64,000 nt of DNA from Nemertoderma westbladi (taxonomy: Eukaryota > Animalia > Xenacoelomorpha): NCBI GenBank assembly GCA_032718475.1, contig JAUCBJ010000109.1, positions 1-64,000 of the forward strand, read 5' to 3'. The notes beneath the pieces are model-generated. The model searched no databases and was not told where the DNA came from. It saw nothing but the letters and a program-made list of their open reading frames with translations. Positions 10,206-61,166 of the stretch are shown here, piece after piece (the first letter of the stretch is position 1; the number at the start of each line of letters is the position of its first letter). The position numbers were made by a program, and so were the translations under genes.

Positions 10206-10703
10206 CTACAATAAAATAAATTTTAAATTTATTGTGAGACTCGTTCATGTTGCCTTGGTAACTTGACACGAAATACAAAGTACAATCAATGTTTGTAGTC
10301 AAGGAATGACGTTTTGGAATCACTTACCTGCCAATAAATAGCCTTTAGTTAATTTATTTTAAACTTGCTTTGAAGGGCCCATAAACTATTTTCTCTCTAA
10401 AAACTCATTGCACTCAACTTTAAACTTATATACGAACAAACTATACAACTAATTTGACATTACAGGCTTCAGCTGCAGTGGCTTACTTACCTTATTATTT
10501 AAAATAGTATTCCATCTATACCGACACTATATAATATATTAGCTATGAAGATGTACAGCTGATGTAGATGTATACGGCAATGTAGATGTGGTGGCTTACC
10601 TTACTAGTAGTAGTACTTCCATCAAGAGCTATGTAAATGTGGTGGTTTACCTTACTACAGTAGTACTCCATCAACAGCTATGTAGATGTGGTGGTTTACC
10701 TTA

Positions 10704-11798
10704 GGGGTCATCCATAAAAGACGTCCGAGAAAATCCCGAATTTTTGGACCCCCCCCTCCCCCCTGTCCGCGAATGTCCGGTTTTTGACCCCCCCCCCCCC
10801 CCCCTCCCCCTATTCGGACGTCCGAATTTTAGAAAATAAAACAGAAAACAAATACACGAATTGCATAACGAATGCATTGCATTGCACGAATGCATTGCAG
10901 ACTCTATTTCACCTGGCAATGCAGACTCTATGACCTCAGGGGAGGCAGATTCTATGATCTGGGGGGAGGCAGACTCCATGATCTGAGGTGCTGTCAATGC
11001 GATCTGTAAGATGCTGTCAATGCACCTCGTATGGCAGAGGCAGGTTGACCTGTCTCTGCGGATTCTGCAGCACCACATGCGCTGGACTCTGTGGCGCCAA
11101 TCGAATAAGTTTGGAACATATGCCATGCATTTATCTTCGCGGCTGATTGGCGGTGTACCAATTCTTGTAATTGTGATTTCTTGGCCAACAGGGCCGCTTT
11201 ATCTTTTTTGAGCAAGTTCCATTCTTCTTGCCCCTTTCGGAATTGCTTCTCACTAGATAACTCGCTATGCGACTTTCTATATAGTTCGATAAATTTATTG
11301 TATTCCGACATTGCTGGGAGTTATTACCGGTACCGGTAGCCTATTTATCGTGCAGCCTTAGGCCTGCCGGGAGTGGGCACTAGTAAAGAATAGGGGACCG
11401 CAGTACTGACCAGTACATTATCAAACTGAAACTACTTATTAGCCAGTATAATATAGCGTTACGGTACGGGCTTAATACATTGTAATACATGATAAACTTA
11501 ACGTATACTGTACAGTGTACAGGTACACCCATCAAGGGTTAGGTTGGCCGTCTCCCCAGATTCTGAAACTTGAAACGTTTACTTTCACTTTAAATATGCG
11601 GGCCTAGGTGCCCATCCGAAAGTTAAGTTTAGACTACATTTGGCCATATGGGCTGCAACGTTGAAAATAAAAAATTTAAAAACAGACGTCCGAATTTTGC
11701 TACACCCCCCCCCCCCCCCCCCCCCTGTCCGTAAATGTCCGGATTTGGCCGACCCCCCTCCCCCCCCTCTAGCGCGGACGTCTTTTATGGATGACCCC
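10704..11798 (-). mobile_element. 1095-bp non-autonomous DNA transposon, Zator-like (PIF/Harbinger as alternative)
   Basis: Perfect 24-bp TIR GGGGTCATCCATAAAAGACGTCCG. TTA target duplication at 10701-10703 and 11799-11801 inside a satellite unit. Subterminal C-runs. Confidence 0.88.
10994..11311 (-). pseudogene. Probable N-terminal remnant of the TIR element's transposase
   Basis: MSEYNKFIELYRKSH...QEEWNLLK...AKINAW is a helical segment resembling Zator transposase N-termini (from memory). No DDE core is present. Confidence 0.45.
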
Positions 11799-13613
11799 TT
11801 ACTACAGTAGTACTCCATCAACAGCTATGTAGATGTGGTGGTTTACCTTACTACAGTAGTACTCCATCAACAGCTATGTAGATGTGGTGACTTACCTTAC
11901 TACAGTAGTACTCCATCAACAGCTATGTAGATGTGGTGACTTACCTTACTACAGTAGTACTCCATCAACAGCTATGTAGATGTGGTGGCTTACCTTACTA
12001 GTAGTAGTACTTCCATCAAGAGCTATGTAAATGTGGTGGTTTACCTTACTACAGTAGTACTCCATCAACAGCTATGTAGATGTGGTGGTTTAACTTACTA
12101 CAGTAGTACTTCCATCAACAGCTATGTAGATGTGGTGGTTTACCTTACTACAGTAGTACTCCATCAACAGCTATGTAGATGTGGTGACTTACCTTACTAC
12201 AATGTGGTGACTTACCTTACTACAGTAGTACTCCATCAACAGCTATGTAGATGTGGTGGTTTACCTTACTACAGTAGTACTCCATCAACAGCTATGTAGA
12301 TGTGGTGGTTTACCTTACTACAGTAGTACTTCCATCAACAGCTATGTAGATGTGGTGGTTTACCTTACTACATACAGTAGTACTCCATCAACAGCTATGT
12401 AGATGTGGTGACTTACCTTACTACAATGTGGTGACTTACCTTACTACAGTAGTACTCCATCAACAGCTATGTAGATGTGGTGGTTTACCTTACTACAGTA
12501 GTACTCCATCAACAGCTATGTAGATGTGGTGGTTTACCTTACTACAGTAGTACTCCATCAACAGCTATGTAGATGTGGTGACTTACCTTACTACAATGTG
12601 GTGGCTTACCTTACTACAGTAGTACTTCCATCAACAGCTATGTAGATGTGGTGGTTTACCTTACTACAGTAGTACTCCATCAACAGCATGTAGATGTGGT
12701 GACTTACCTTACTACAATGTGGTGGCTTACCTTACTACAGTAGTACTCCATCAACAGCTATGTAGATGTGGTGGTTTAACTTACTACAGTAGTACTCCAT
12801 CAACAGCTATGTAGATGTGGTGACTTACCTTACTACAATGTGGTGACTTACCTTACTACAGTAGTACTCCATCAACAGCTATGTAGATGTGGTGGCTTAC
12901 CTTACTACAGTTGTAGTACTCCATCAACAGCTATGTAGATGTGGTGGCTTACCTTACTACAGTTAGTAGTACTTCCATCAACAGCTATGTAGATGTGGTG
13001 GTTTAACTTACTACAGTAGTACTCCATCAACAGCTATGTAGATGCGGTGGCTTACCTTACCACAGTAGTACTCCATCAACAGCTATGTAGATGTGGTGAC
13101 TTACCTTACTACAGTAGTACTCCATCAACAGCTATGTAGATGTGGTGACTTACCTTACTACAGTAGTACTCCATCAACAGCTATGTAAATGTGGTGATTT
13201 ACCTTACTACAGTAGTACTCCATCAACAGCTATGTAGATGTGGTGACTTACCTTACTACAGTAGTACTCCATCAACAGCTATGTAGATGTGGTGGCTTAC
13301 CTTACTACAGTTAGTAGTACTTCCATCAACAGCTATGTAGATGTGGTGGTTTAACTTACTACAGTAGTACTCCATCAACAGCTATGTAGATGCGGTGGCT
13401 TACCTTACCACAGTAGTACTCCATCAACAACTATGTACTTATGTAGATGTGGTGGCTTACCTTACTACAGTAGTACTCCATCAACAGCTATGTAGATGTG
13501 GTGGTTTACCTTACTACAGTAGTACTCCATCAACAGCATGTAGATGTGGTGACTTACCTTACTACAATGTGGTGGCTTACCTTACTACAGTAGTACTCCA
13601 TCAACAGCTATGT

Positions 13614-14857
13614 TGTAAAAGCTTTTGCGTAATTAGCCGGTTATTATCCCCGTAAAGTACTCTGTGGTTGGTTTACCAGGCATAAAAAGGCCGTGTCCTT
13701 GCTGTACTGGTGTTTTGGAGGACATAAAAGCCATTTCTTCTGTATTTGTACTTTAGAGGACATAATCTGTAATTTCGTGACGTAAAAAGCTCGATACTCT
13801 TGAAAACAGTGTCGCTACCATGACGACGGCTAACGGCTGATATTGCCACGTTGCCCCATAGCCCTGCTTTCTGTATCTGCCAATAGGATTTGAGTTGGCT
13901 TTGATTTTGACATATCACAGAGCTACTGAACTGAATTTTCCTATCTCACTGCTCTTTCTCTGTGTTGGACGGGAGCTTCGTGGAATAAGGGTAGCTGGTA
14001 TTCTTATAGTTATTCTTTTCAGTGTTGTTGGTGATTCTAAGCCAGGAAGAACGGCTTTGGAGTATTTTGTGCTTTTCTGCTTTAGCCCTACACTAGTAGG
14101 CTTAATTATAAGGACATATATCCGTTATCTGCATACTGCAGTACTGCATACACTGCATACTGTGTAACACTGTGCATACTTTTATATTGTTATACTGCTA
14201 TTTACTGTCAGTTCTTCATAATATGGTTGATGAATTATTATATTTGGAATAACGACAAATAACCCCGAAAACCCAATATTCTTGATATACCGAAGGTAAG
14301 AGAGAAGGGTTACAGATAAATGATTGCGACCTATGTTGAGTGGTTTGAAGTGAATCTAATGTTATTTGATAGACCCTACATGATTCGGTCCGTGTTCCTT
14401 TTATATGTGACTAAAATCAGTGAAGATCGGCAGATTAGTGTGCAGTATTGTGCAGCATTGTGTATGAGTGAGACTGATAACGAAGCATTTCCTAAAGAAT
14501 GCGCCATATATGTGAATTGTAACTAAGCCATATCGTTGTGAGTAGTTTAAGTCATAACTCTGTTTATATAGATAGAGCGCCACGTCCTAAAGGAACTGTT
14601 AATATTTCCCGAAGGTGAATAATATTGTCAGAGATTATATAATACTGTCAGTCGAATAATACATTAGGCTTACATAGCAATACGATTAAGCTGTCGAAAT
14701 CAATCTCCCGGGTATATCCAACGGGTGAATGATCGCGCACAGATTGGTTTCAACTAGTGTAGTGAATCAAATACTTGTTAGAGGCTAAAGCGATTTATTA
14801 TCTAGAAGACATCCTAATTTGGCGGGTTAAACTGCCAAAGGTCTGAAAGCGCGAACA
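13614..14857 (+). repeat. 5' LTR of copy B
   Basis: Direct repeat of 23844-25087; I noticed only two substitutions by eye. Confidence 0.97.
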
Positions 14858-15231
14858 ATAACGGATATAGCTTCTTTATTGCAGTAAGCAATAAAGTTGA
14901 AAGTACCGGTCAACCGGTAAACCTGAACGGTACATCTGTAGGTCAGTAGGCCCAACTGCCAGAACCGGTACTGCCGTAGGTCCGTAGGTCCAACTGCCAG
15001 AACCGGTACTTCTGTAGGTCCGTAGGCCCGACTGTCCTAACCGGTACTTCCAGTATAGGTACATTAGTATTATTCGATTTTGATAATTATATACCGGTAG
15101 GCCTTAATAATTAATCAGGGACTGCAGCCCTGGTTTTTTATTGAGATTTTTACTTATTTCTGTCAAGTTTTATTTGTTTGTAGGCCAGTATTGAACAGAA
15201 GGCGTGTAAGCCTGATCAGATTGTACAGACA

Positions 15232-15790
15232 ATTTGTAGGCTGAGCTGTTGTCTGATTGCTGTTAAGTCTGAACGGATTGCAGTGTGTGTAGATCACCTG
15301 TCCGATAAAGAACGGTTAGGAAGTAGGGGCAGCGAATGCTGTAAGGTAAACCCCCAATTAAAGAATAAGTCGTACTACTGGGTTAGAACGCATACTACCT
15401 AATTATTTCGGAGTCTGCATGTCCTGTAGTTTATTTAGGCTTGAGAGTAGTCTGCCATCGTTTAGTCTGTACTTTGTTTGTGTAAGTCTGTACGGGTAGC
15501 GTATAATTTTATTTAGATAATTTGTAGGCTGGATAGTTGTCTGGCTGTTATTAGGTCTGAACGGATTGCAGCGTGTGTAGATCACTTGTCCGATAAAGAA
15601 CGGTTAGGAAGTAGGGGCAGCGAATGCTGTAAGGTAAACCCCCAACTAAAGAATAAGTCGTACTACTGGGTTAGAACGCATACTACCTAATTATTTCGGA
15701 GTCTGCATATACCGTAGTTTGTTTAGGCTTGATAGTAGTCTGTCAGTGTTCGGTCTGCATTTTGTTTGAGTAGTTTGTACGCGTAGCGTA
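15232..15790. repeat. Tandem duplication of about 288 bp in the long 5' leader of copy B
   Basis: TCCGATAAAGAACGGTTAGGAAGTAGGGGCAGCG occurs at 15301 and 15589. Confidence 0.85.
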
Positions 15791-17120
15791 ATATTTATTA
15801 TTCAGAGTTTATGCGATTATCCGCAACATTCATTCCCCAAGTTTGTTCCTACAGTAATTGTGTTTGTTATACATACCGCTATAGTTAAATTAACCCCGGT
15901 ACTACACGGGCTGCTTGGCGTAGGTAAAGACTGGTGATTTTGTGCATCGGTCACTCCAGCAGATGCCGTGGTTCTTTTAACTGTTCAAGTATATTTAACT
16001 ACTGATTATATGTTGTACAAGTACTCGTACCTAATTTAGGGTTTAGTGTACAGTACTTTCCGAAGTAATTAGTGTAGACATTATATTTGTGTTGTAAAGT
16101 GGTTGATAGGCACGTTCGATTAGCTCTATTAACTTCTAGGTAGGAACACTCCGTGATACATAACGTAGTACCTGTAGCGATACGGCTATAGGTCGTCAGG
16201 CGGTGGTATTTTCCTATCTGGACAACGCAGTGTATTTACTACTACTTATTATTTCAAATACCGTAGTACCCTGTCCGTTGTAATAACCAGATTTCTAACC
16301 CTTTGTTAGGCTGGTTCGTAGACTTCTTGTAAAATTACCCTAAAAATTAGTATTTTGTTTTTTTTTGTAAATTTTTGTGTTTATTTAGAGATTGTAATCT
16401 CAACCCGTATCGTACGTAATTTGTAGTATTAAGTAACTTAGGTAAATTAGAATTATTTGTTTTAGTGTCCTATAAGTAACACTTCACTGAAAGCGCACCG
16501 CTTTGTGTAGTGATTACTCCCCAGAAATAATAACATTTATTTCAAACATTGACAAAACCCATTAAAACGGGTATATATATATTATAAATCAACTCAAACG
16601 ATTTATAAATAGTAGGCCTGCCATACAACAATTAGGTCTCAATATCAGTTGGACTACTGCTTAAATAACGGTAATAAAGTAAGTTAAAGTAACCAAGTAA
16701 CCCTTAAAATTCAGAAATTCAATTATTCTAAAATAATTGACATACCGGTATTTACAATAGGCTTATTATATTTATTTCTATAAATTTTAGGTTGAAATCA
16801 TACCGGTATTCTGTAATTAATTCTAGTCTGTAATTATACTTATATATACTGTAAGTGTAAACTGCATACCGGTATCCACGATAGGCCTATTATATATTTA
16901 TATATATTTGTGCTAAAATTATATACCGGTTTCTGTGATAAACTAGTCTGTAATAATACTTATATATACTATAAGCATACCGGTATTCTAATATATTAAA
17001 TATATCACGCTACATTGAGTAGCAGTATCGGTAATTAATTACTAGGCTAACAGTGATACTGAATTACTAGACTTGCTTTAACTGTAATATAGCAGTAGGC
17101 ATTCAACTGTACAATCAAAC

Positions 17121-19001
17121 ATGTCTGACTCACGACAAACACTGTCAGATAGTCTCATAGAAAGTGTTAGAATGACTGTTAGACAGTGTCTTAAAAAGAT
17201 CAGTGACCCAGATCCAAGTATAGAACATCCTAGATCCAAGTCGAAGTCACCTCCTGCTGTAAGAAAGGCCATCCCTACTGTAGTAATCTCAGACCCTAGG
17301 CTAGTCCAACATCGTAGGTCTATCATCGGCACTCGGGCCCCAGTCAAGCGGGATCAAGAAGCAGCTGTCAAACAGCAGCAACATCCTAGCCAAGAACCTA
17401 GTTTTCAGCGGCCTGATAGCTCCAGTAGTTCGGATACTGATGAGCGGACGCCCGAACGCGGAGCGAAGATGGTGGATAAGGTTTATGATGAGCGGCCAAC
17501 CTATGAAGAATCAACCGACGCCACTTCTTCTCAAGAAGAAAGCGAAGGGACAGCGGAGGGGCCGCGAAAGAGAGATGCCATTGACATCTATCTGTCAGAC
17601 TATCAGCGTTTTTTGGGAGATGAAGAGTTGAGGAGAAGGCTAGAGGGACTTAGCCCTAATAGCGAAGGAGCCAAACTTGTGTTAGATGCGATTGATGTGG
17701 ATAGGTTAGCGGCGAACCAAGCTAAATTCGATGAACAACTCCGCATCGCTAGAGAAAAGGAAGAACAAGTAAGGAAAAAACGTATAGAAGACAGAAAGAT
17801 AGCAGCAGTGGCAGAGGCAGAAAGAAAAGCGGCAGCGGCAGAGGCAAAAGCGGCAGCGGCAGAGGCAAAAGCGGCAGCAGTGGCGGAAGCAGAACGAAAA
17901 GCGGCAGCGGCAGAGGCAAAAGCGGCAGTGGCAGAGGCAAAAGCGGCAGCAGTGGCGGAAGCAGAACGAAAAGCGGCAGCGGCAGAGGCAAAAGCGGCAG
18001 TGGCAGAGGCAAAAGCGGCAGCAGTGGCGGAAGTAGAACGAAAGGTGGCTGAAGAGATCATCCAACTGGAGTTGGAAAATCTTCAAGAGAAGCAAGACGA
18101 CTTCAGTAAACAGTTAGCAGCTAGTAATATGCAGATGATGAGTCGATCTACTCCCAAAAGACAGGGGTATACATCATCTGAGGAAGGCGATACCACCGAC
18201 ACTGAAGGCGGAGGAAAGCGATCTCGTCTAAGCCGACGTAAAAGAACATTCCACCGTCAGAAATTGCCTGATTTGCCTCCAGCTGTTAGAAGACAACTAA
18301 ATAACACCAACTTAGGTAGTACAGAACCCACAGACCAAATAATTGAAATAGAAAGACTCCCTACTATAGTAGATGAGCCTGAAATAATTAGGCCTGTTCT
18401 TGAAATCACCCCTACGGTGATAGACACACCTGTGCTCCCTGAAGCTACCTATAAATTCCCTCTGCATAGCACTAAGCTACCTGTGCCCCGTAGAACTGCC
18501 CAAGAGACAGTTCAGGTCCTGGACCCCGAGCGAAGTATTCATGATTTGTCGCCCGTTGTCCCTCATCTGCCCGCTACGACGTTGGCGGATCCCGTTTCGG
18601 CGGTTGATTGGGTAGACGAGAGACGGCGGGGGATGGATATTCTCCTCGGAGAGATGAAGGAGAATCGGATACGCTCCTCCCAACAGGTCCGAGAGTTGGA
18701 AGGGACTGTCCAACATTTAAAGGGAACAGTGAGGGAAAGTAAGTTAGAGTTGCAAGAAGTGCAGCAAATTATCGCGTTAGAACGCGATAAATTAGTAAAC
18801 TTACAAAAGGGTATACCACCACCCTCTGTAACAATGTGTCAACCTGTTAGGTCTGAAGTACCACATGCGCAAGGTGTGGAGCCTACACGCATCTATACTG
18901 CTAGCGAAGTAGAAACTCCTATAGTGAACCCTATTAAGGGTAATTATATACCTGTTGATAATGACATTCCCTATAGAACTGATCATAATCCGAGAAATTG
19001 A
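17121..19001 (+). CDS. N-terminal part of the Gag polyprotein (low complexity, coiled coil with AEAK/AEAERK repeats)
   Basis: 626-aa ORF in the same frame as the downstream ORF and separated from it by a single TGA. Confidence 0.75.
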   Translation: MSDSRQTLSDSLIESVRMTVRQCLKKISDPDPSIEHPRSKSKSPPAVRKAIPTVVISDPRLVQHRRSIIGTRAPVKRDQEAAVKQQQHPSQEPSFQRPDSSSSSDTDERTPERGAKMVDKVYDERPTYEESTDATSSQEESEGTAEGPRKRDAIDIYLSDYQRFLGDEELRRRLEGLSPNSEGAKLVLDAIDVDRLAANQAKFDEQLRIAREKEEQVRKKRIEDRKIAAVAEAERKAAAAEAKAAAAEAKAAAVAEAERKAAAAEAKAAVAEAKAAAVAEAERKAAAAEAKAAVAEAKAAAVAEVERKVAEEIIQLELENLQEKQDDFSKQLAASNMQMMSRSTPKRQGYTSSEEGDTTDTEGGGKRSRLSRRKRTFHRQKLPDLPPAVRRQLNNTNLGSTEPTDQIIEIERLPTIVDEPEIIRPVLEITPTVIDTPVLPEATYKFPLHSTKLPVPRRTAQETVQVLDPERSIHDLSPVVPHLPATTLADPVSAVDWVDERRRGMDILLGEMKENRIRSSQQVRELEGTVQHLKGTVRESKLELQEVQQIIALERDKLVNLQKGIPPPSVTMCQPVRSEVPHAQGVEPTRIYTASEVETPIVNPIKGNYIPVDNDIPYRTDHNPRN

Positions 19002-19031
19002 TATACCGATAACTCGATATTAAATAACACG

Positions 19032-21494
19032 ATGGCCCAAGAAAGTTTTACGCGTCAAATGGCTAGAACCGAAGCCCGGCAAGCGGTAAAGGTGGGAGAG
19101 ATCGTCAAGTTCAATGGAGATGAGATGAAATGGTTACCTTTTAATGAATATTATAAAGATAACATACAGAACTCTGTACTATCTAACGGAGAGAAACTTA
19201 GATTCCTCATCGAATGTTTGGAAGGACCTCCCAAGTCAATGGCGTTAAAATTTATTGGACATCCAGATGGATTAAGACAAGTTTGGGATACACTAAACAT
19301 CAGGTATGGTAATAGGACTAACATAGCTAGGTATTTATATGCGAAATTAATGGCGCCCCGAAAGTTTCTTAGCAGCGGGATTATAGAGTTTTCCGATGAG
19401 ATTCAGGAGATCTGTAGACAACTAGATTGGTTAGGTAAGTCTCATGAATACCAGAATTCTATGGTTGTAGGAGCCTTAGCATCTACTTTGCCCAAGGGTG
19501 GAGTAGGTACACGCTGGGACAAGAAGGTGTTATATATGATGGAACAACAACAACGAGACCCTACCATGGCTGATCTCATGTCATTCTTAGATGGAGAAGT
19601 GAAATTACAGCTCCTAAGACAGTCCAGAGAGAAGACACTGGAAAACAAGGTAAGTGAGAAACCCGTCTCCAGAAGAAAGGTAACACCAGTGTGTTATACC
19701 GACGACGGCGAAAGCCAAGCTTCCCAAGGGGAGGATAGCGGGAAAGACACTGAAAGATCTTATTATGTCAATAAAATGCCTAAAGATCAGGTAAGTAAAT
19801 CCAAGTCTCGACCCAATGACAGAAGGGAACCGGTACAAAAAACCCTTCCTACGTCTCCTAAAAGAATTCAGGTGAGAAAGCCCGAGGAAAGAACAAGTGT
19901 GCACCACATAGCACAGGTTAAAGTAAGTAACATCAAGCCGAAATGTGTGCTGTGCGACGGGCCCCACCGTTTAAATGCGTGTGATAAATTCCTGAGGAAA
20001 TCACTCGAGGATAGACGTGAAGTCATGTGGGATAAGCGGTTGTGTTATAATTGCCTCAGACGAGGACACCAACGGCGAACCTGTTACTCCGACGCAAGGT
20101 GTGCAAAGTGCGGCGCAAAACATCATATCTTGTTGCACACGGAATTCGAACGAAACAGCCCGAGTCAGGTAAGTGAGTCCGAACTACATGTCCAATTCAG
20201 TGATGTGAACGACACTGATCAATCTGAGATGGAAGGATTCTATACGGACGAGTTCTCCGACGAAAACGAATCCTGTTACTTAATAAACACCACCGCAGTG
20301 TATCGAGCACTCATGTATGAGAAAGACACAGACAGCGACCTCACCCTAACTACTTCAGATCAACAACCATCTTGGAAAGCGCCAACTTCCAATATAGGAA
20401 TCCGAGAATTTCCTGTAGTCCAGTTACGGGTCCACGGACCTCAGAAGAGCTATATAGTGAACGCCCTCCTGGACTCCGGTAGCACAGGAACATTCATCGA
20501 TAAAGAACTAGCCGAAGTCATCTTTGCTGGACAACCCAAGTTCCGAACCAAGCTAAACATGTCAGGGATCATGCAGGTTTGGAATTCTACTGTAGCTGCC
20601 GACTATTATATAGGTGAGTTGTCCACTCCACAGGATAAACTAGGAGAATACAGTATAAGGTCAGTAAAAATGGTGGCAATAAAGAACTTCGCTACCACCC
20701 AAGTTGAACCTTATAATTGGGACGAAGATGATCATGTCCAACAACTTAACATCCCTAGATTCGACACCGATTATCCTGGAGTACAAATATTAATCGGTCA
20801 AAACGCGCATGAGGCGCTGGAGACATTAGAGAAACGACCTACTCAACCGCAACCACTTCAGACCTATGCGGTAAGAACTAGAGTAGGTTGGTACCTTACT
20901 GGACCTTCCCGTAGAACGCTCAGGGAAAGACTGCTTCAAGATCGCGTCTGCCAGGTGAGTGAATGGGAAGACGATACTAGTGAGGGAGACGACCCAACTG
21001 AGGGAACACCACACTCCTCAGATAATGACAATCTTAACTCCAATGTAGATCAATGGAGATATTGCCCCAAGACGATGAATACAGCCGACATCTCTTCCAG
21101 AGGAGCAACTCCTCAAGAACTGACAGATACTACAGACCGGTTAGGTGAACCCGACTTCCTGAGTAAGGAGGATGAATGGCCTCCCCATCTTACTCCGACT
21201 GAGATTAGACCAGCCAAGGGAGCGGAGAAAGTCAAACCAAAAACCCGGACGGGTGGAGCGGAGTTATTTGAACCCGGGATAGATCTGTCGGTATTACATA
21301 TTGCCAGGGACGACGCCGTGGATCTGGACCTCCCCACCGCGAGTGGATCGTTCATGAAGATCAGAGAGAGCGATTGGAGCTCTGGAACATCAGACGTCTC
21401 GCAGGGACTCTCAGACAAGTTCTGGAATAAATTGGTGCCCATCTCAAATATTAATTATTTAATATTTGCAAATCTAATAAATCAAAATCTGTAA
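19032..21494 (+). CDS. BEL/Pao Gag (DUF1759-like capsid, 3 zinc knuckles), aspartic protease and a remnant of the RNase H C-terminus; RT and integrase absent
   Basis: Motifs KFNGDEMKWLPF...EKLRFL; CVLCDGPHRLNAC, CYNCLRRGHQRRTC, CAKCGAKHHILLH; ALLDSGS; AVRTRVGWYLTGP; QWRYCPKTMNTADISSRG...PDFL..DEWP. Confidence 0.9.
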   Translation: MAQESFTRQMARTEARQAVKVGEIVKFNGDEMKWLPFNEYYKDNIQNSVLSNGEKLRFLIECLEGPPKSMALKFIGHPDGLRQVWDTLNIRYGNRTNIARYLYAKLMAPRKFLSSGIIEFSDEIQEICRQLDWLGKSHEYQNSMVVGALASTLPKGGVGTRWDKKVLYMMEQQQRDPTMADLMSFLDGEVKLQLLRQSREKTLENKVSEKPVSRRKVTPVCYTDDGESQASQGEDSGKDTERSYYVNKMPKDQVSKSKSRPNDRREPVQKTLPTSPKRIQVRKPEERTSVHHIAQVKVSNIKPKCVLCDGPHRLNACDKFLRKSLEDRREVMWDKRLCYNCLRRGHQRRTCYSDARCAKCGAKHHILLHTEFERNSPSQVSESELHVQFSDVNDTDQSEMEGFYTDEFSDENESCYLINTTAVYRALMYEKDTDSDLTLTTSDQQPSWKAPTSNIGIREFPVVQLRVHGPQKSYIVNALLDSGSTGTFIDKELAEVIFAGQPKFRTKLNMSGIMQVWNSTVAADYYIGELSTPQDKLGEYSIRSVKMVAIKNFATTQVEPYNWDEDDHVQQLNIPRFDTDYPGVQILIGQNAHEALETLEKRPTQPQPLQTYAVRTRVGWYLTGPSRRTLRERLLQDRVCQVSEWEDDTSEGDDPTEGTPHSSDNDNLNSNVDQWRYCPKTMNTADISSRGATPQELTDTTDRLGEPDFLSKEDEWPPHLTPTEIRPAKGAEKVKPKTRTGGAELFEPGIDLSVLHIARDDAVDLDLPTASGSFMKIRESDWSSGTSDVSQGLSDKFWNKLVPISNINYLIFANLINQNL

Positions 21495-22429
21495 AATTCA
21501 GATCCTTCAACAATTCTAGTCAATTAAGATATCGTAGCATTTACCGATATTCTTAAAAAGACAATTGTCATAGAATTAAGGATCTTGTGTCCCCAGACAT
21601 GTTCTAGAATCAAAATATGTCAATTTAATTATCAAATAATAAAATTTCAGGGAATAAATTTAAATTCATGCCTTTTAATGAATTTAATAAATTGCCATTT
21701 TTACGCAATTTATAACATTCCCAAAAATTCCATTAATTAATAGATCAAGGGAGCGGAGATTTATCTTATTATGCGTATGAGAGTGCGAAAGTCTCCCAAA
21801 CATAGTCAATAGCCGATAAAATTCATAAAGTCATGTATAAAACAGGACATTGACTATTAAAGAATTACTATTAAATAACATCCCAGATCTGTATGCATTG
21901 GAATTACCCTAATTCTACCGCTAGCTTTACATAATGTCACCATAGCAACAACCACGCTAGAATTAGAATTGAGTTAAAAGAACAATAGAAAGCTTGTCCC
22001 ATTGAATAGCATAGGGAATAAATAGCGCACTGCTAGTATCCAAGGATACATAATAATACAGTGACATTCTGGAAGGCATTGACTAACAGACAAATGGCCC
22101 GAGTGTGTAATTTGTGACAAGTTGTGTGTGTGGTATTTGTGAGTTTATAGGCGAATGTTACTACTAAGGTGTGTTTACAGTAGCGAGTCGCAATTGTGAA
22201 AGTAACCCTAACTCTCCAGTAAGAACCTGAGGTGTATCTAAGCCTTTGGGACGGACAGTCGAGTGACTTGTGCCGGTTGTCGTTGTCGTTGTGCGGCTAC
22301 GTCGTTGGCGAAAGTACAGCGGCGACGACACATCGGTGCTGAGGATCTCGCACTGTCCGGGGGCTGATTGGGGTAGGCAGCGACGCTCGCTAGCCTAAAT
22401 ATAAACTCATTATAATATTAGTAAACTCA

Positions 22430-40000: not shown

Positions 40001-43000
40001 CCTTACTACAGTAGTACTCCATCAACACCTATGTACTTATGTAGATGTGGTGGCTTACCTTACTACAGTAGTACTCCATCAACAGCTATGTAGATGTGGT
40101 GATTTACCTTACTACAGTAGTAATCCATCTAACAGCTATATAGATGTGGTGGCTTACCTTACTACAGTAGTACTCCATCACCAACTATGTAGATGTGGTG
40201 GTTTACCTTACTACAGTAGTACTCCATCAACAGCTATGTAGATGTGGTGGCTTACCTTACTACAGTAGTACTCCATCAACAGCTATGTAGATGTGGTGGT
40301 TTACATTACTACAGTAGTACTCCATCAACAGCTATGTAGATGTGGTGACTTACCTTACTACAGTAGTACTCCATCAACAGCTATGTAGATGTGGTGACTT
40401 ACCTTACTACAGTAGTACTCTATCAACAGCTATGTAGATGTGGTGGCTTACCTTACTACAGTAGTACTCCATCAACAACTATGTACTTATGTAGATGTGG
40501 TGGCTTACCTTACTACAGTAGTACTCCATCAACAGCTATGTAGATGTGGTGATTTACCTTACTACAGTAGTACTCCATCTAACAGCTCTATAGATGTGGT
40601 GGCTTACCTTACTACAGTAGTACTCCATCACCAACTATGTAGACGTGGTGGCTTACCTTACTACAGTAGTACTCCATCAACAGCTATGTAGATGTGGTGG
40701 CTTACCTTACTACAGTAGTACTCCATCAACAGCTATGTAGATGTGGTGGTTTACATTACTACAGTAGTACTCCATCAACAGCTATGTAGATGTGGTGGTT
40801 TACCTGACTACAGTAGTACTCCATCACCAGCTATGTAGACGTGGTGGTTTACCTTACTACAGTAGTACTCCATCAACAGCTATGTATAGATGTGGTGACT
40901 TGCCTTACTACAGTAGTACTCCATCTACAGCTATATGTAGATGTGGTGGTTTACCTTACTACAGTTAGTAGTACTCCACCTACAGCTATATGTAGATGTG
41001 GTGGCTTATCTTACTACAGTAGTACTCCATCAACAGCTATGTAGATGTGGTGGTTTACCTTACTACAGTAGTACTCCATCTACAGCTATATGTAGATGTG
41101 GTGGTTTACCTTACTACAGTAGTACTCCATCAACAGCTATGTAGATGTGGTGACTTACCTTACTACAGTAGTACTCCATCAACAGCTATGTAGATGTGGT
41201 GGCTTACCTTACTACAGTAGTACTCCATCAACAGCTATGTAGATGTGGTGACTTACCTTACTACAGTAGTACTCCATCAACAGCTATGTAGATGTGGTGG
41301 TTTACCTTACTACAGTAGTACTCCATCAACAGCTATGTAGATGTGGTGGTTTACCTTACTACAGTAGTACTCCATCAACAGCTATGTAGATGTGGTGGTT
41401 TACCTTACTACAGTAGTACTCCATCAACAGCTATGTAGATGTGGTGGTTTACCTTACTACAGTAGTACTCCATCTACAGCTATGTAGATGTGGTGACTTA
41501 CCTTACTACAGTAGTACTCCATCAACAGCTATGTAGATGTGGTGGTTTACCTTACTACAGTAGTACTCCATCAACAGCTATGTAGATGTGGTGGTTTACC
41601 TTACTACAGTAGTACTCCATCAACAGCTATGTAGATGTGGTGGTTTACCTGACTACAGTAGTACTCCATCACCAGCTATGTAGACGTGGTGGTTTACCTT
41701 ACTACAGTAGTACGCCATCAACAGCTATGTATAGATATGGTGACTTGCCTTACTACAGTAGTACTCCATCTACAGCTATATTTAGATGTGGTGGTTTACC
41801 TTACTACAGTAGTACTCCATCACCAGCTATGTAGACGTGGTGGTTTACCTTACTACAGTAGTACTCCATCAACAGCTATGTATAGATATGGTGACTTGCC
41901 TTACTACAGTAGTACTCCATCTACAGCTATATGTAGATGTGGTGGTTTACCTTACTACAGTAGTACTCCATCACCAGCTATGTAGACGTGGTGGTTTACC
42001 TTACTACAGTAGTACTCCATCAACAGCTATGTATAGATGTGGTGACTTGCCTTACTACAGTAGTACTCCATCTACAGCTATGTAGATGTGGTGGTTTACC
42101 TTACTACAGTAGTACTCCATCAACAGCTATGTATAGATGTGGTGACTTGCCTTACTACAGTAGTACTCCATCTACAGCTATGTAGATGTGGTGGTTTACC
42201 TTACTACAGTTAGTAGTACTCCACCTACAGCTATATGTAGATGTGGTGGCTTATCTTACTACAGTAGTACTCCATAAACAGCTATGTAGATGTGGTGGTT
42301 TACCTTACTACAGTAGTACTCCATCTACAGCTATATGTAGATGTGGTGGTTTACCTTACTACAGTAGTACTCCATCAACAGCTATGTAGATGTGGTGACT
42401 TACCTTACTACAGTAGTACTCCATCAACAGCTATGTAGATGTGGTGGCTTACCTTACTACAGTAGTACTCCATCAACAGCTATGTAGATGTGGTGACTTA
42501 CCTTACTACAGTAGTACTCCATCAACAGCTATGTAGATGTGGTGGTTTACCTTACTACAGTAGTACTCCATCAACAGCTATGTAGATGTGGTGGTTTACC
42601 TTACTACAGTAGTACTCCATCAACAGCTATGTAGATGTGGTGGTTTACCTTACTACAGTAGTACTCCATCAACAGCTATGTAGATGTGGTGGTTTACCTT
42701 ACTACAGTAGTACTCCATCTACAGCTATGTAGATGTGGTGACTTACCTTACTACAGTAGTACTCCATCAACAGCTATGTAGATGTGGTGGTTTACCTTAC
42801 TACAGTAGTACTCCATCAACAGCTATGTAGATGTGGTGACTTACCTTACTACAGTAGTACTCCATCAACAGCTATGTAGATGTGGTGGTTTACCTTACTA
42901 CAGTAGTACTCCATCTACAGCTATATGTAGATGTGGTGGCTTACCTTACTACAGTAGTACTCCATCAACAGCTATGTAGATGTGGTGGCTTACCTTACTA

Positions 43001-46000
43001 CAGTAGTACTCCATCTACAGCTATATGTAGATGTGGCGGATTACCTTGCTACAGTAGTACTCCATCTACAGCTATATGTAGATGTGGTGGTTTACCTTAC
43101 TACAGTAGTACTCCATCTACAGCTATATGTAGATGTGGTGGTTTACCTTACTACAGTAGTACTCCATCTACAGCTATATGTAGATGTGGTGGTTTACCTT
43201 ACTACAGTAGTACTCCATCAACAGCTATGTAGATGTGGTGACTTGACTTACTACAGTATTACTCTATCTACAGCTATATGTAGATGTGGTGGTTTACCCT
43301 ACTACAGTAGTACTCCATCAACAGCTATGTAGATGTGGTGACTTACCTTACTACAGTAGTACTCCATCAACAGCTATGTAGATGTGGTGACTTACCTTAC
43401 TACAGTAGTACTCCATCAACAGCTATGTAGATGTGGTGGTTTACCTTACTACAGTAGTACTCCATCAACAGCTATGTAGATGTGGTGGTTTACCTTACTA
43501 CAGTAGTACTCCATCTACAGCTATATGTAGATGTGGTGGTTTACCTTTCTACAGTAGTACTCCATCAACAGCTATGTAGATGTGGTGGTTTACCTTACTA
43601 CAGTAGTACTCCATCTACAGCTATATGTAGATGTGGTGGTTTACCTTACTACAGTAGTACTCCATCAACAGCTATGTAGATGTGGTGACTTGACTTACTA
43701 CAGTAGTACTCCATCAACAGCTATGTAGATGTGGTGGTTTACCTTACTACAGTAGTACTCCATCTACAGCTATATGTAGATGTGGTGGTTTACCTTACTA
43801 CAGTAGTACTCCATCAACAGCTAGTAGATGTGGTGACTTGACTTACTACAGTAGTACTCCATCAACAGCTATATGTAGATGTGGTGGTTTACCCTACTAC
43901 AGTAGTACTCCATCAACAGCTATGTAGATGTGGTGACTTACCGTACTACAGTAGTACTCCATCAACAGCTATGTAGATGTGGTGCCTTACCTTACTACAG
44001 TAGTACTCCATCAACAGCTATGTAGATGTGGTGACTTACCTTACTACAGTAGTACTCCATCACCAGCTATGTAGATGTTGTGACTTACCTTACTACAGTA
44101 GTACTCCATCAACAGCTATGTAGATGTGGTGACTTACCTTACTACAGTAGTACTCCATCAACAGCTATGTAGATGTGGTGGTTTACCTTACTACAGTAGT
44201 ACTCCATCAACAGCTATGTAGATGTGGTGGTTTACCTTACTACAGTAGTACTCCATCACCAGCTATGTAGATGTGGTGACTTACCTTACTACAGTAGTAC
44301 TCCATCAACAGCTATGTAGATGTGGTGGTTTACCTTACTACAGTAGTACTCCATCAACAGCTATGTAGATGTGGTGGTTTACCTTACTACAGTAGTACTC
44401 CATCTACAGCTATGTAGATGTGGTGACTTACCTTACTACAGTAGTACTCCATCAACAGCTATGTAGATGTGGTGGTTTACCTTACTACAGTAGTACTCCA
44501 TCAACAGCTATGTAGATGTGGTGGTTTACCTTACTACAGTAGTACTCCATCAACAGCTATGTAGATGTGGTGGTTTACCTTACTACAGTAGTACTCCATC
44601 TACAGCTATATGTAGATGTGGTGGTTTACCTTACTACAGTAGTACTCCATCAACAGCTATGTAGATGTGGTGACTTGACTTACTACAGTATTACTCCATC
44701 TACAGCTATATGTAGATGTGGTGGTTTACCCTACTACAGTAGTACTCCATCAACAGCTATGTAGATGTGGTGGTTTACCTTACTACAGTAGTACTCCATC
44801 AACAGCTATGTAGATGTGGTGACTTACCTTACTACAGTAGTACTCCATCAACAGCTATGTAGATGTGGTGGTTTACCTTACTACAGTAGTACTCCATCAA
44901 CAGCTATGTAGATGTGGTGACTTACCTTACTACAGTAGTACTCCATCAACAGCTATGTAGATCTGGTGGTTTACCTTACTACAGTAGTACTCCATCAACA
45001 GCTATGTAGATGTGGTGGTTTACCTTACTACAGTAGTACTCCATCAACAGCTATGTAGATGTGGTGGTTTACCTTACTACAGTAGTACTCCATCTACAGC
45101 TATATGTAGATGTGGTGGTTTACCTTACTACAGTAGTACTCCATCAACAGCTATGTAGATGTGGTGGTTTACCTTACTACAGTAGTACTCCATCTACAGC
45201 TATATGTAGATGTGGTGGTTTACCTTACTACAGTAGTACTCCATCAACAGCTATGTAGATGTGGTGACTTGACTTACTACAGTAGTACTCCATCAACAGC
45301 TATGTAGATGTAGTGGTTTACCTTACTACAGTAGTACTCCATCTACAGCTATATGTAGATGTGGTGGGTTACCTTACTACAGTAGTACTCCATCTACAGC
45401 TATATGTAGATGTGGTGGTTTACCTTACTACAGTAGTACTCCATCAACAGCTATGTAGATGTGGTGACTTGACTTACTACAGTAGTACTCCATCAACAGC
45501 TATGTAGATGTGGTGACTTACCTCACTACAGTAGTACTCCATCAACAGCTATGTAGATGTGGTGGTTTACCTTACTACAGTAGTACTCCATCAACAGCTA
45601 TGTAGATGTGGTGACTTACCTTACTACAGTAGTACTCCATCAACAGCTATGTAGATGTGGTGGTTTACCTTACTACAGTAGTACTCCATCTACAGCTATA
45701 TGTAGATGTGGTGGCTTACCTTACTACAGTAGTACTCCATCAACAGCTATGTAGATGTGGTGGCTTACCTTACTACAGTAGTACTCCATCTACAGCTATA
45801 TGTAGATGTGGCGGATTACCTTACTACAGTAGTACTCCATCTACAGCTATATGTAGATGTGGTGGTTTACCTTACTACAGTAGTACTCCATCTACAGCTA
45901 TATGTAGATGTGGTGGGTTACCTTACTACAGTAGTACTCCATCTACAGCTATATGTAGATGTGGTGGTTTACCTTACTACAGTAGTACTCCATCAACAGC

Positions 46001-49000
46001 TATGTAGATGTGGTGACTTGACTTACTACAGTATTACTCTATCTACAGCTATATGTAGATGTGGTGGTTTACCCTACTACAGTAGTATTCCATCAACAGC
46101 TATGTAGATGTGGTGACTTACCTTACTACAGTAGTACTCCATCAACAGCTATGTAGATGTGGTGCCTTACCTTACTACAGTAGTACTCCATCAACAGCTA
46201 TGTAGATGTGGTGACTTACCTTACTACAGTAGTACTCCATCAACAGCTATGTATATGTGGTGGTTTACCTTACTACAGTAGTACTCCATCACCAGCTATG
46301 TAGATGTGGTGACTTACCTTACTACAGTAGTACTCCATCAACAGCTATGTAGATGTGGTGGTTTACCTTACTACAGTAGTACTCCATCAACAGCTATGTA
46401 GATGTGGTGGTTTACCTTACTACAGTAGTACTCCATCTACAGCTATATGTAGATGTGGTGGTTTACCTTACTACAGTAGTACTCCATCAACAGCTATGTA
46501 GATGTGGTGGTTTACCTTACTACAGTAGTACTCCATCAACAGCTATGTAGATGTGGTGACTTGACTTACTACAGTAGTACTCCATCAACAGCTATGTAGA
46601 TGTGGTGGTTTACCTTACTACAGTAGTACTCCATCTACAGCTATATGTAGATGTGGTGGTTTACCTTACTACAGTAGTACTCCATCAACAGCTATGTAGA
46701 TGTGGTGGTTTACCTTACTACAGTAGTACTCCATCAACAGCTATGTAGATGTGGTGACTTACCTTACTACAGTAGTACTCCATCAACAGCTATGTAGATG
46801 TGGTGGTTTACCTTACTACAGTAGTACTCCATCAACAGCTATGTAGATGTGGTGGTTTACCTTACTACAGTAGTACTCCATCTACAGCTATATGTAGATG
46901 TGGTGGTTTACCTTACTACAGTAGTACTCCATCTACAGCTATATGTAGATGTGGTGGTTTACCTTACTACAGTAGTACTCCATCAACAGCTATGTAGATG
47001 TGGTGACTTGACTTACTACAGTAGTACTCCATCAACAGCTATGTAGATGTGGTGGTTTACCTTACTACAGTAGTACTCCATCTACAGCTATATGTAGATG
47101 TGGTGGTTTACCTTACTACAGTAGTACTCCATCAACAGCTATGTAGATGTGGTGACTTGACTTACTACAGTAGTACTCCATCAACAGCTATATGTAGATG
47201 TGGTGGTTTACCCTACTACAGTAGTACTCCATCAACAGCTATGTAGATGTGGTGACTTACCTTACTACAGTAGTACTCCATCAACAGCTATGTAAATGTG
47301 GTGCCTTACCTTACTACAGTAGTACTCCATCAGCATTCAGCAGCTATGTAGATGTGGTGACTTACCTTACTACAGTAGTACTCCATCAACAGCTATGTAG
47401 ATGTGGTGGTTTACCTTACTACAGTAGTACTCCATCACCAGCTATGTAGATGTGGTGACTTACCTTACTACAGTAGTACTCCATCAACAGCTATGTAGAT
47501 GTGGTGGTTTACCTTACTACAGTAGTACTCCATCAACAGCTATGTAGATGTGGTGGTTTACCTTACTACAGTAGTACTCCATCAACAGCTATGTAGATGT
47601 GGTGGTTTACCTTACTACAGTAGTACTCCATCTACAGCTATATGTAGATGTGGTGGTTTACCTTACTACAGTAGTACTCCATCAACAGCTATGTAGATGT
47701 GGTGACTTGACTTACTACAGTATTACTCCATCTACAGCTATATGTAGATGTGGTGGTTTACCTTACTACAGTAGTACTCCATCACCAGCTATGTAGATGT
47801 GGTGACTTACCTTACTACAGTAGTACTCCATCAACAGCTATGTAGATGTGGTGGTTTACCTTACTACAGTAGTACTCCATCAACAGCTATGTAGATGTGG
47901 TGGTTTACCTTACTACAGTAGTACTCCATCAACAGCTATGTAGATGTGGTGGTTTACCTTACTACAGTAGTACTCCATCTACAGCTATGTAGATGTGGTG
48001 GTTTACCTTACTACAGTAGTACTCCATCAACAGCTATGTAGATGTGGTGGTTTACCTTACTACAGTAGTACTCCATCAACAGCTATGTAGATGTGGTGGT
48101 TTACCTTACTACAGTAGTACTCCATCTACAGCTATATGTAGATGTGGTGGTTTACCTTACTACAGTAGTACTCCATCAACAGCTATGTAGATGTGGTGAC
48201 TTGACTTACTACAGTATTACTCCATCTACAGCTATATGTAGATGTGGTGGTTTACCTTACTACAGTAGTACTCCATCACCAGCTATGTAGATGTGGTGAC
48301 TTACCTTACTACAGTAGTACTCCATCAACAGCTATGTAGATGTGGTGGTTTACCTTACTACAGTAGTACTCCATCAACAGCTATGTAGATGTGGTGGTTT
48401 ACCTTACTACAGTAGTACTCCATCAACAGCTATGTAGATGTGGTGGTTTACCTTACTACAGTAGTACTCCATCTACAGCTATGTAGATGTGGTGGTTTAC
48501 CTTACTACAGTAGTACTCCATCAACAGCTATGTAGATGTGGTGGTTTACCTTACTACAGTAGTACTCCATCAACAGCTATGTAGATGTGGTGGTTTACCT
48601 TACTACAGTAGTACTCCATCTACAGCTATATGTAGATGTGGTGGTATACCTTACTACAGTAGTACTCCATCAACAGCTATGTAGATGTGGTGACTTGACT
48701 TACTACAGTATTACTCCATCTACAGCTATATGTAGATGTGGTGGTTTACCCTACTACAGTAGTACTCCATCAACAGCTATGTAGATGTGGTGGTTTACCT
48801 TACTACAGTAGTACTCCATCAACAGCTATGTAGATGTGGTGACTTACCTTACTACAGTAGTACTCCATCAACAGCTATGTAGATGTGGTGGTTTACCTTA
48901 CTACAGTAGTACTCCATCAACAGCTATGTAGATCTGGTGGTTTACCTTACTACAGTAGTACTCCATCAGTAGTACTCCATCTACAGCTATATGTAGATGT

Positions 49001-52000
49001 GGTGGCTTACCTTACTACAGTAGTACTCCGTCAACAACGTAGATGTGGTGGTTTACCTTACTACAGTAGTACTCCATCAACAGCTATGTAGATGTGGTGG
49101 TTTACCTTACTACAGTAGTACTCCATCACCAACAATGTAGACGTGGTGGTTTACCTTACTACAGTAGTACTCCATCAACAGCTATGTAGATGTGGTGACT
49201 TGCCTTACTACAGTAGTACTCCATCTACAGCTATATGTAGATGTGGTGGTTTACCCTACTACAGTAGTACTCCATCAACAGCTATGTAGATGTGGTGACT
49301 TACCTTACTACAGTAGTACTCCATCAACAGCTATGTAGATGTAGTGGTTTACCTTACTACAGTAGTACTCCATCTACAGCTATATGTAGATGTGGTGGTT
49401 TAACTTACTACAGTAGTACTCCATCAACAGCTATGAAGATGTGGTGACTTACCTCACTACAGTAGTACTCCATCAACAGCTATGTAGATGTGGTGGTTTA
49501 CCTTACTACAGTAGTACTCCATCAACAGCTATGTAGATGTAGTGGTTTACCTTACTACAGTAGTACTCCATCTACAGCTATATGTAGATGTGGTGGTTTA
49601 ACTTACTACAGTAGTACTCCATCAACAGCTATGTATGTGGTGGCTTACCTTACTACAGTAGTACTCCATCAACAGCTATGTAGATGTGGTGACTTACCTT
49701 ACTACAGTAGTACTTCCATCAACAGCTATGTAGATGTGGTGACTTACCTTACTACAGTAGTACTCCATCAACAGCTATGTAGATGTAGTGGTTTACCTTA
49801 CTACAGTAGTACTCCATCTACAGCTATATGTAGATGTGGTTAACTTACTACAGTAGTACTCCATCAACAGCTATGTAGATGTGGTGGCTTACCTTACTAC
49901 AGTAGTACTCCATCAACAGCTATGTAGATGTGGTGGCTTACCTTACTACAGTAGTACTCCATCAACAGCTATGTAGATGTGGTGACTTACCTTACTACAG
50001 TAGTACTTCCATCAACAGCTATGTAGATGTGGTGACTTACCTTACTACAGTAGTACTCCATCAACAGCTATGTAGATGTAGTGGTTTACCTTACTACAGT
50101 AGTACTCCATCTACAGCTATATGTAGATGTGGTTAACTTACTACAGTAGTACTCCATCAACAGCTATGAAGATGTGGTGACTTACCTCACTACAGTAGTA
50201 CTCCATCAACAGCTATGTATAGATGTGGTGACTTACCTTACTACAGTAGTACTCCATCAACAGCTATGAAGATGTGGTGACTTACCTCACTACAGTAGTA
50301 CTCCATCAACAGCTATGTATAGATGTGGTGACTTACCTTACTACAGTAGTACTCCATCAACAGCTATGTAGATGTGGTGGTTTACCTTACTACAGTAGTA
50401 CTCCATCAACAGCTATGTAGATGTGGTGGTTTACCTTACTACAGTAGTACTCCATCAACAGCTATGTAGATGTGGTGGTTTACCTTACTACAGTAGTACT
50501 CCATCTACAGCTATATGTAGATGTGGTGGTTTACCTTACTACAGTAGTACTCCATCAACAGCTATGTAGATGTGGTGACTTGACTTACTACAGTATTACT
50601 CCATCTACAGCTATATGTAGATGTGGTGGTTTACCTTACTACAGTAGTACTCCATCACCAGCTATGTAGATGTGGTGACTTACCTTACTACAGTAGTACT
50701 CCATCAACAGCTATGTAGATGTGGTGGTTTACCTTACTACAGTAGTACTCCATCAACAGCTATGTAGATGTGGTGGTTTACCTTACTACAGTAGTACTCC
50801 ATCAACAGCTATGTAGATGTGGTGGTTTACCTTACTACAGTAGTACTCCATCTACAGCTATGTAGATGTGGTGGTTTACCTTACTACAGTAGTACTCCAT
50901 CAACAGCTATGTAGATGTGGTGGTTTACCTTACTACAGTAGTACTCCATCAACAGCTATGTAGATGTGGTGGTTTACCTTACTACAGTAGTACTCCATCT
51001 ACAGCTATATGTAGATGTGGTGGTTTACCTTACTACAGTAGTACTCCATCAACAGCTATGTAGATGTGGTGACTTGACTTACTACAGTATTACTCCATCT
51101 ACAGCTATATGTAGATGTGGTGGTTTACCTTACTACAGTAGTACTCCATCACCAGCTATGTAGATGTGGTGACTTACCTTACTACAGTAGTACTCCATCA
51201 ACAGCTATGTAGATGTGGTGGTTTACCTTACTACAGTAGTACTCCATCAACAGCTATGTAGATGTGGTGGTTTACCTTACTACAGTAGTACTCCATCAAC
51301 AGCTATGTAGATGTGGTGGTTTACCTTACTACAGTAGTACTCCATCTACAGCTATGTAGATGTGGTGGTTTACCTTACTACAGTAGTACTCCATCAACAG
51401 CTATGTAGATGTGGTGGTTTACCTTACTACAGTAGTACTCCATCAACAGCTATGTAGATGTGGTGGTTTACCTTACTACAGTAGTACTCCATCTACAGCT
51501 ATATGTAGATGTGGTGGTATACCTTACTACAGTAGTACTCCATCAACAGCTATGTAGATGTGGTGGTTTACCTTACTACAGTAGTACTTCCATCAACAGC
51601 TATGTAGATGTGGTGACTTACCTTACTACAGTAGTACTCCATCAACAGCTATGTAGATGTAGTGGTTTACCTTACTACAGTAGTACTCCATCTACAGCTA
51701 TATGTAGATGTGGTTAACTTACTACAGTAGTACTCCATCAACAGCTATGTAGATGTGGTGGCTTACCTTACTACAGTAGTACTCCATCAACAGCTATGTA
51801 GATGTGGTGGCTTACCTTACTACAGTAGTACTCCATCAACAGCTATGTAGATGTGGTGACTTACCTTACTACAGTAGTACTTCCATCAACAGCTATGTAG
51901 ATGTGGTGACTTACCTTACTACAGTAGTACTCCATCAACAGCTATGTAGATGTAGTGGTTTACCTTACTACAGTAGTACTCCATCTACAGCTATATGTAG

Positions 52001-52407
52001 ATGTGGTTAACTTACTACAGTAGTACTCCATCAACAGCTATGAAGATGTGGTGGCTTACCTTACTACATTAGTACTCCATCAACAGCTATGTAGATGTGG
52101 TGACTTACCTTACTACAGTAGTACTCCATCAACAGCTATGTAGATGTGGTGGCTTACCTTACTACATTAGTACTCCATCAACAGCTATGTAGATGTGGTG
52201 GTTTACCTTACTACAGTAGTACTCCATCTACAGCTATATGTAGATGTGGTGGTTTAACTTACTACAGTAGTACTCCATCAACAGCTATGAAGATGTGGTG
52301 ACTTACTTTACTACAGTAGTACTCCATCAACAGCTATGTAGATGTGGTGGCTTACCTTACTACAGTTGTAGTACTCCATCAACAGCTATGTAGATGTGGT
52401 GACTTAC
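25088..52407 (-). repeat. Satellite 3, main block (27.3 kb, about 550 units of 49-51 bp) derived from the CstF-77 exon end and its donor site
   Basis: Minus-strand unit GTAAGT-CACCACATCTACATA-GCTG-TTGATGGAGTACTACTGTAGTAAG, compared with exon CACCACATCTACATA-GCCGCGGCT-TTGATGGAGTACTACTGTAGTAAG|GTAAGT. Confidence 0.98.
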
Positions 52408-52551
52408 CTTACTACAGTAGTACTCCATCAAAGCCGCGGCTATGTAGATGTGGTGGCCGCAACGCAAATCATCTCTTGCCTTTTTGAACACAACGCGGGC
52501 CGATTTTATTCCTTCCGCCCTCCTGGCGAATCTCATGTACTGCACGTAGGC
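52408..52551 (-). CDS. CSTF3: CstF-77 exon ([48 protein letters not shown])
   Basis: Acceptor ttatcttag|GCC, donor AAG|gtaagt, 48 codons. Strongly resembles CSTF3 [28 protein letters not shown]...[16 protein letters not shown] (HAT repeats). Confidence 0.97.
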
Positions 52552-61116: not shown

Positions 61117-61166
61117 GAAGCGTCTTTGGGTGGGGTGGATCTTACAAACTATAGTTTATATCTTAC

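Follow-up and report, generated by a model that had tools for sequence, protein, structure and literature searches.

How is a splice donor chosen when hundreds of near copies of it follow in the same intron? This question is raised by 64,000 nucleotides of Nemertoderma westbladi DNA (Xenacoelomorpha; GenBank assembly GCA_032718475.1, contig JAUCBJ010000109.1, positions 1 to 64,000; hereafter the window), in which the minus strand carries part of the gene for CstF-77/Suppressor of forked, a core 3′-end processing factor. The intron between two of its coding exons, here named E and F, is 42,202 bp long and houses a large tandem array of a 49-bp unit. An earlier note on this DNA had proposed that the unit is a copy of the end of exon E together with its donor, and that either the first donor is simply taken or the array serves a function. 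The analyses described below show where the unit came from, and they favour the view that the array is probably a tolerated passenger in an expressed CstF-77 gene that is spliced from its first donor.

The host gene encodes CstF-77

Six colinear exons, A to F, share a single open frame on the minus strand, and all six match the Pfam family Suf in order. Exon A (63085..63289; Suf E 2.8e-21; also found by tblastn) covers about residues 157–224 of a 717-residue homologue and is followed by exons B (62523..62669), C (61595..61720), D (61167..61358), E (52408..52551) and F (10103..10205), the last of which supplies the acceptor of the E–F intron. Together they span about residues 157–461 of that homologue, the only part of the gene that lies inside the window, and no further CstF-77 exon was found there by tblastn. 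Exon E aligned to residues 378–424 of human CSTF3 (E 1e-20). The exon D protein is 63–75% identical to Su(f)/CstF-77 proteins, mostly from named insects (45 of 50 candidates), and a search with the exon A protein returned no full-length match above about 60% identity. Colinear Suf/HAT coding exons, an open frame, transcription and splicing (see below) bear out the earlier identification of the gene as CstF-77. The exon after F is outside the window, so that the intron following exon F is longer than 10 kb.

A satellite of about 600 units begins at the true donor

The true donor of exon E reads AAG/GTAAGT (the slash marks the exon–intron border) at 52408/52407, and the array begins precisely there, as had been noted before. 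Tandem Repeats Finder (TRF) reported the 49-bp repeat with 545.9 copies at 25088-52431 and further pieces at 11797-13589 and 10580-10703. Three minus-strand segments can be delimited. The main array (25088..52407) contains about 550 units, mostly of 49 bp, with repeated blocks of about 2.2–2.8 kb. The distal segment (11799..13613) follows an inserted long terminal repeat (LTR) element, downstream of which 12 of the 17 unit types also occur in the main array. The far end (10485..10703) holds the last intact units, short sub-repeats and an old, decayed copy of the exon end and donor at full length (about 10538-10485), after which the intron is unique. When two interrupting transposons are removed, the array consists of 596 units and has 595 donor-like sites downstream of the true donor. 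Units of at most 120 bp (n = 592) sum to 29,082 bp, which agrees with the earlier estimate of about 29 kb and about 600 donor copies; the exact length rests on the assembly.

Most units are 49 bp (406/596) or 51 bp (101/596) long. They fall into 105 types, 41 of which occur once, and stretches of as many as 42 units are repeated identically 55 units further along, marking block duplications of about 2.7 kb. Outside the donor, the pairwise difference among the 49-mers is 2.2%. Of the 595 donor-like sites, 262 are GTAAAC, 140 GTAAGT, 97 GTAAGC, 25 GC-type and 23 other GT forms, so that 522 begin with GT, and 48 begin with neither GT nor GC, one of these being an artefact of the sequence join at the DNA transposon, which leaves 47. 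These counts agree with the kinds of donor variant listed in the earlier note.

The same note had spoken of several hundred donors with identical exonic context. The number of sites stands; only 138 of the 595 decoys equal the true donor in their match to the U1-complementary 9-mer (8 of 9). The nearest decoy of that strength is the sixth, at 52108; each of the five before it is weaker than the true donor. A frame continued beyond the exon E border gives the 19 letters described before, with a stop at 52362, within the first unit; any later donor would therefore yield a truncated frame. RNA folding in 100-nt windows, a weak test, gave a predicted pairing of 0.87 for the true donor and 0.36–0.65 for decoys, with no sign that the decoys are buried.

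The first donor is used in an RNA-like run

Six sequencing runs were listed, four of them with the exon A–D stretch; they come from three samples and three studies, and none is recorded as RNA. Contigs from four of the six were compared over 52300-53600, at the exon E end of the intron. All three samples (S1, S2 and S3) contain the repeat. In S2, which is distinct from the possible source sample, the repeat reached a depth of 20,889 against 14.9 for exon E in run X2 and 1,103 against 3.6 in run X3, the repeat depths being sums and not copy numbers. The abundance of the repeat in this second sample indicates that the array is not an invention of the assembly. The sole exon difference in X3 is synonymous.

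Run X4 behaves differently. It contains 0.23 of the query words, where 0.255 is expected for exons only, and in it the unique intron sequence immediately before exon E has a depth of 0; this exon-only cover marks it as RNA-like. One X4 contig of 376 nt, at a depth of 1,684, joins 129 nt from exon D, the whole of exon E without a differing letter, and exon F, and its loose ends match the end of exon D and the start of exon F exactly. Because GCCGCGGCT, a segment found in the exon and not in the commonest unit, stands beside exon F in this contig, the first donor was used. The junction 52408>10205, which had been put forward as the check to make, is thus seen in this contig, and the proposal that the spliceosome picks the first donor is supported by this run. 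A repeat-type contig in X4 has a depth of 22.5, about 1.3% of the spliced depth. X4, the one RNA-like run, shows an expressed gene in which the first donor predominates.

Two details of X4 may be recorded. The repeat-type contig (about 52332-52413) fits the first unit, which is 52 nt long, without gaps and with two other letters at 52362-52363. The spliced contig, judged by its length, stops at the last base of exon F (10103); this end may mark a branch, either a retained intron or an alternative next exon.

The repeat was copied from the end of exon E

Outside its first 6 nt, the commonest unit is the last 48 nt of exon E with GCCGCGGCT replaced by GCTG, and 260 of the 596 units match this sequence exactly when the donor hexamer is excluded. 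The unit therefore carries 43 exonic nt in 49, as the earlier note had read it, and that note was also right that the origin of the satellite can be read from the exon end. The replacement of GCCGCGGCT by GCTG would most simply be read as one CpG-type C>T change plus a 5-nt deletion. An undeleted 54-nt unit is in frame and free of stops, and the 49-nt unit is not. This loss of frame may have made growth of the array tolerable.

The decayed copy at the far end points to a longer history. It is identical to the exon end at 37 of 49 aligned bases, a divergence of about 25%, and its alignment score is higher with the undeleted 54-nt exon end (51, a value reached by 0 of 2,000 shuffles) than with the 49-mer (42). 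Were the array as old as the relic, no more than one substitution in 43 sites would be expected with a P of about 8e-5 at the divergence of the relic, a figure that overstates the case because part of this divergence belongs to the exon itself. A decayed relic beside a nearly identical array probably reflects two or more copying events from the exon end, or else continuing exchange between exon end and array. By eye, the intron after the relic starts with GTAAGTAAGCCAC and shares GCCAC with the exon at the very start of the unit; the exon segment that the unit has lost sits within a 10-nt palindrome. The GCCAC match and the palindrome may both have favoured the duplication. Sub-repeats of 16–19 nt from the 5′ half of the unit occupy 10545-10600, the stretch that separates the decayed copy from the last intact units. 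One of them retains the exon's GCCG, and they are read as traces of an intermediate repeat.

Donor bases vary most within the unit

Four of the six most variable unit positions are donor bases, namely +6 (66%), +5 (50%), +1 (8%) and +2 (7%), and donor positions +1 to +5 hold 51% of the derived variation. The excess was significant by permutation (P 0.001 for +1 to +6, and 0.010 without +6, which was dropped from the second test since its ancestral state is unclear) and against 120 neutral simulations with block duplication, block deletion and uniform mutation (P 0.0002 and 0.003), where all of these tests assume uniform mutation and draw on a single locus with about five mutation events. The excess suggests, short of proof, selection against decoy donors. 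Whether weak selection wears the decoys down, or chance or mutation bias produced the pattern, is about evenly balanced. No gradient in donor strength or class from proximal to distal was found in 12 bins along the array, and this flat profile counts against a simple competition model.

At unit position 27, a T>A change in 113 of 577 units completes an inverted repeat within the unit (CATCTACA...TGTAGATG). This variant suggests a hairpin-templated change, and in view of it mutation in the unit may not be uniform.

Transposons and neighbouring arrays

The array is interrupted by an LTR retroelement and a DNA transposon. The LTR element (13614..25087, plus strand), which we take to be of the Bel/Pao type, is 11.5 kb long, with LTRs of 1,244 bp that show 2 differences, a TATGT target duplication and a DUF1759 gag-like open reading frame (ORF); its other ORFs gave no match to a reverse transcriptase or integrase in Pfam. 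The element is young. The 1.1-kb DNA transposon (10704..11798), presumably PIF/Harbinger-like, has terminal inverted repeats and a TTA/TAA target duplication. A second, older relative of the LTR element occupies 1773-3216 and 135-1922, with about 86.5% identity over 1,050 bp of LTR; a 596-codon ORF in it has no clear Pfam match.

Tandem repeats make up 62.5% of the window, and three other intronic arrays contribute to this figure. An 18-bp array of 351 copies (54732-61120) starts 46 nt after the exon D donor in the D–E intron. A 38-bp array of 53 copies (8000-9991) starts 111 nt after the exon F donor, and a 38/24-bp higher-order array (3217-5755) lies further down the same intron. An exonic origin was not found for any of the three (local scores of 12–20, against 123 for a dimer of the 49-mer on exon E with its flanks). 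This region of the genome breeds intronic arrays, and one of them took its seed from a stretch that spans a donor. Three successive arrays start at or near the 5′ end of an intron. Leftover 18-mers are present at 52633-52675, beyond about 2 kb of intervening sequence. The part of this sequence at 52608-53600 occurs at very high copy number in the DNA runs and, on visual inspection, shows inverted ends, resembling a miniature inverted-repeat transposable element. A 9-bp repeat (GGGTTTCTC) is found in 12 copies at 7812-7921.

Discussion

The array belongs to a known class, in which it is unusually large. Minisatellites whose first unit lies across an exon–intron border, known as mirages, have been described before (Borensztajn et al. 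2006, PMC1557585; Ebner et al. 2010, PMC3087553). Four features of this class are found here: a head-to-tail repeat with its first unit over the host exon–intron boundary, a splice signal in many but not all units (GT in 522/595, full equality with the true donor in 138), an mRNA made mainly from the authentic donor (1,684 against 22.5, in contigs of the one RNA-like run), and concerted evolution of the interior from which the edge unit is excluded (2.2% against 37/49 at the far end). A fifth mark of the class is length polymorphism between alleles, on which the present data offer the repeat in S1, S2 and S3 at contig depths that carry no copy number. The earlier note had called the locus a rare case. 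The directly readable origin stands; the architecture itself is that of the described class, and the unrelated arrays in the neighbouring introns had been missed.

The human examples comprise F7 with 5–9 copies, 6-16 (IFI6) with 25, CBS with 15–20, LMNB2 with 10–15 and PDGF with 16–18 (PMC1557585). They share with the present array a border-spanning first unit, a donor repeated down the intron and use of the most upstream donor. In the 37-bp variable number of tandem repeats (VNTR) of F7 intron 7, the most upstream functional donor wins even over stronger pseudo-sites, and only perfect-consensus ones compete; in LMNB2 and PDGF the authentic donor alone is used (PMC1557585). Unlike these arrays of 5–25 copies, the present one has about 595, and it also differs in its mostly exonic unit, frameshifting deletion, kilobase block duplications, transposon insertions and location in a gene for a housekeeping 3′-end factor. 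The amphioxus mirages in Adh3 and globin genes are, like the present array, tandem duplications of an invertebrate exon–intron boundary in which many units keep splice signals, splicing is regular, and the interior is homogenised while the edge units stand outside homogenisation (PMC3087553). The amphioxus globins have one duplicate (BflGb9) or 3–6 units (BflGb6) of about 150–160 bp, in contrast to the satellite size reached here; a further difference is that the consensus here still matches the present exon and the far-end copy is about 25% diverged. The published exon-border cases that were found thus have 1–25 copies. No exon-border array of hundreds of copies was found in the open-access literature, a result that leaves room for one published elsewhere, and a donor VNTR of human UPF3A was sought there and not found. 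The available part of PMC10078293 held nothing specific. The gigantic introns of Drosophila Y-linked genes resemble the E–F intron as satellite-filled introns of expressed genes that are spliced out (PMC11207136, PMC6508621); they reach megabases and belong to germline genes, and the available part of PMC11207136 describes no donor-bearing satellite derived from a host exon.

The array is probably a tolerated passenger, with the following likely course. A short tandem duplication, perhaps aided by the GCCAC match and by an older copy already on site, would have given birth to the repeat, and unequal exchange would have carried the 49-bp unit to about 595 copies. The first donor reached would define exon E, a rule carried over from human F7, and transcripts from later donors would meet the stop codon and undergo nonsense-mediated decay (NMD). 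Several points weigh against this reading. Human 6-16 and CBS use the next two pseudo-sites, and perfect-consensus pseudo-sites do compete in F7 (PMC1557585); 138 decoys here are as strong as the true donor, the weakness of the first five has a P of about 0.27 by chance, and the donor classes run along the array without a gradient. The splicing evidence comes from one RNA run, as contigs, which lose rare variants, and NMD would also hide transcripts that leak to later donors. Moreover, control of CstF-77 by U1 and by the strength of a 5′ splice site is known from another intron (PMC3708835), which makes the gene a plausible site for such control.

This last point leads to the array as a tuner of expression, as the earlier note had also considered. 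Regulated use of the nearest decoys, leading to the stop and to decay, or slow splicing of a 42-kb intron that favours intronic polyadenylation, would let array length or content set the dose of CstF-77. Every downstream donor does lead to the stop at 52362, human 6-16 and CBS use proximal pseudo-sites (PMC1557585), autoregulation of human CSTF3 works through intronic polyadenylation that depends on how large the intron and how strong the donor is (Luo et al. 2013, PMC3708835), and X4 has its low-depth repeat-type contig. Yet repeat RNA amounts to only about 1.3% of the spliced depth, although NMD would hide such RNA, and the array appears young (2.2% pairwise difference outside the donor) and lies among unrelated arrays. 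The human system shares with this one the gene family, a large intron and the relevance of U1 and donor strength; it is intron 3 of 21, early and large, where a weak donor accompanies a conserved poly(A) site (PMC3708835), and this combination was not found at the present locus, where a strong donor, a junction after human residue 424 and an array free of poly(A) hexamers are seen instead. Tuning is unlikely on this evidence. Still less probable is a U1 landing strip, in which U1 would be loaded onto the copies all along the intron and keep cryptic poly(A) sites shielded. The two array segments do contain 238 AG/GTRAG sites, and intronic polyadenylation of human CSTF3 rises when U1 is inhibited (PMC3708835). 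Against it, the 29.1 kb of array contain 0 AATAAA or ATTAAA hexamers, whereas the LTR element has 17 of these hexamers and 0 AG/GTRAG sites, with 16 of the 17 more than 3.4 kb from the nearest upstream one; and a landing strip for U1 predicts conserved donors, yet the donor positions vary most in the unit.

Stepwise (recursive) splicing, in which an internal AG/GT would serve as acceptor and then as donor so that the intron is removed piecewise, would leave the mature mRNA of X4 identical, and AG does stand immediately before the donor-like hexamer at 576 of 595 junctions. In 557 of these 576 it is AAG, in modest and weak contrast to the CAG or TAG of all six real acceptors; the 17 bases upstream contain a mean of 5.9 T against 7–10 at those acceptors, and the 11.5-kb LTR element lacks such sites. 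This scaffold, raised before, is quite improbable. About as improbable is that the array is real with a length partly due to assembly error, or that the gene copy in the window is a pseudogene. Misassembly would fit with multi-unit runs that are identical over as many as 42 units and with a length known from the assembly alone, with no spanning long read, but the 105 unit types (41 of them single), the clean target duplications of the transposons and the repeat depth far above exon depth in S2 argue against it. A pseudogene is hard to reconcile with a frame open over six exons, a spliced transcript in X4 and an X3 exon difference that is only synonymous. An assembly artefact and an unexpressed pseudogene had both been named in advance as grounds of refutation.

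New in this locus, relative to the described class, are the scale, the indications of two copying events from the exon end and the possible selection that wears down decoys. These may be joined in a bolder account, put forward tentatively and more doubtful than the passenger reading: the satellite would have been born at least twice from a living coding exon, the 5-nt deletion would have made all mis-splicing nonsense and so licensed growth to about 600 copies, and block-level selection would erode the U1-binding bases +1, +2, +5 and +6 faster than the rest. The locus gives no indication of a novel type of element or, as the evidence stands, of a regulatory role. If the array is indeed a passenger behind a dominant first donor, then a first-donor rule established with 5–9 copies in a human minigene would cope with about 600 competitors, 138 of them equally strong, across a 42-kb intron of a core 3′-end factor, and the locus would be a natural test of first-come models of donor choice against models of strength or proximity. 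The seed of the satellite, its older relic and the later transposon invasions are all directly readable, and through the excess variation at its donor bases the array gives a rare opportunity to ask whether splicing exerts selection on the sequence of a satellite.

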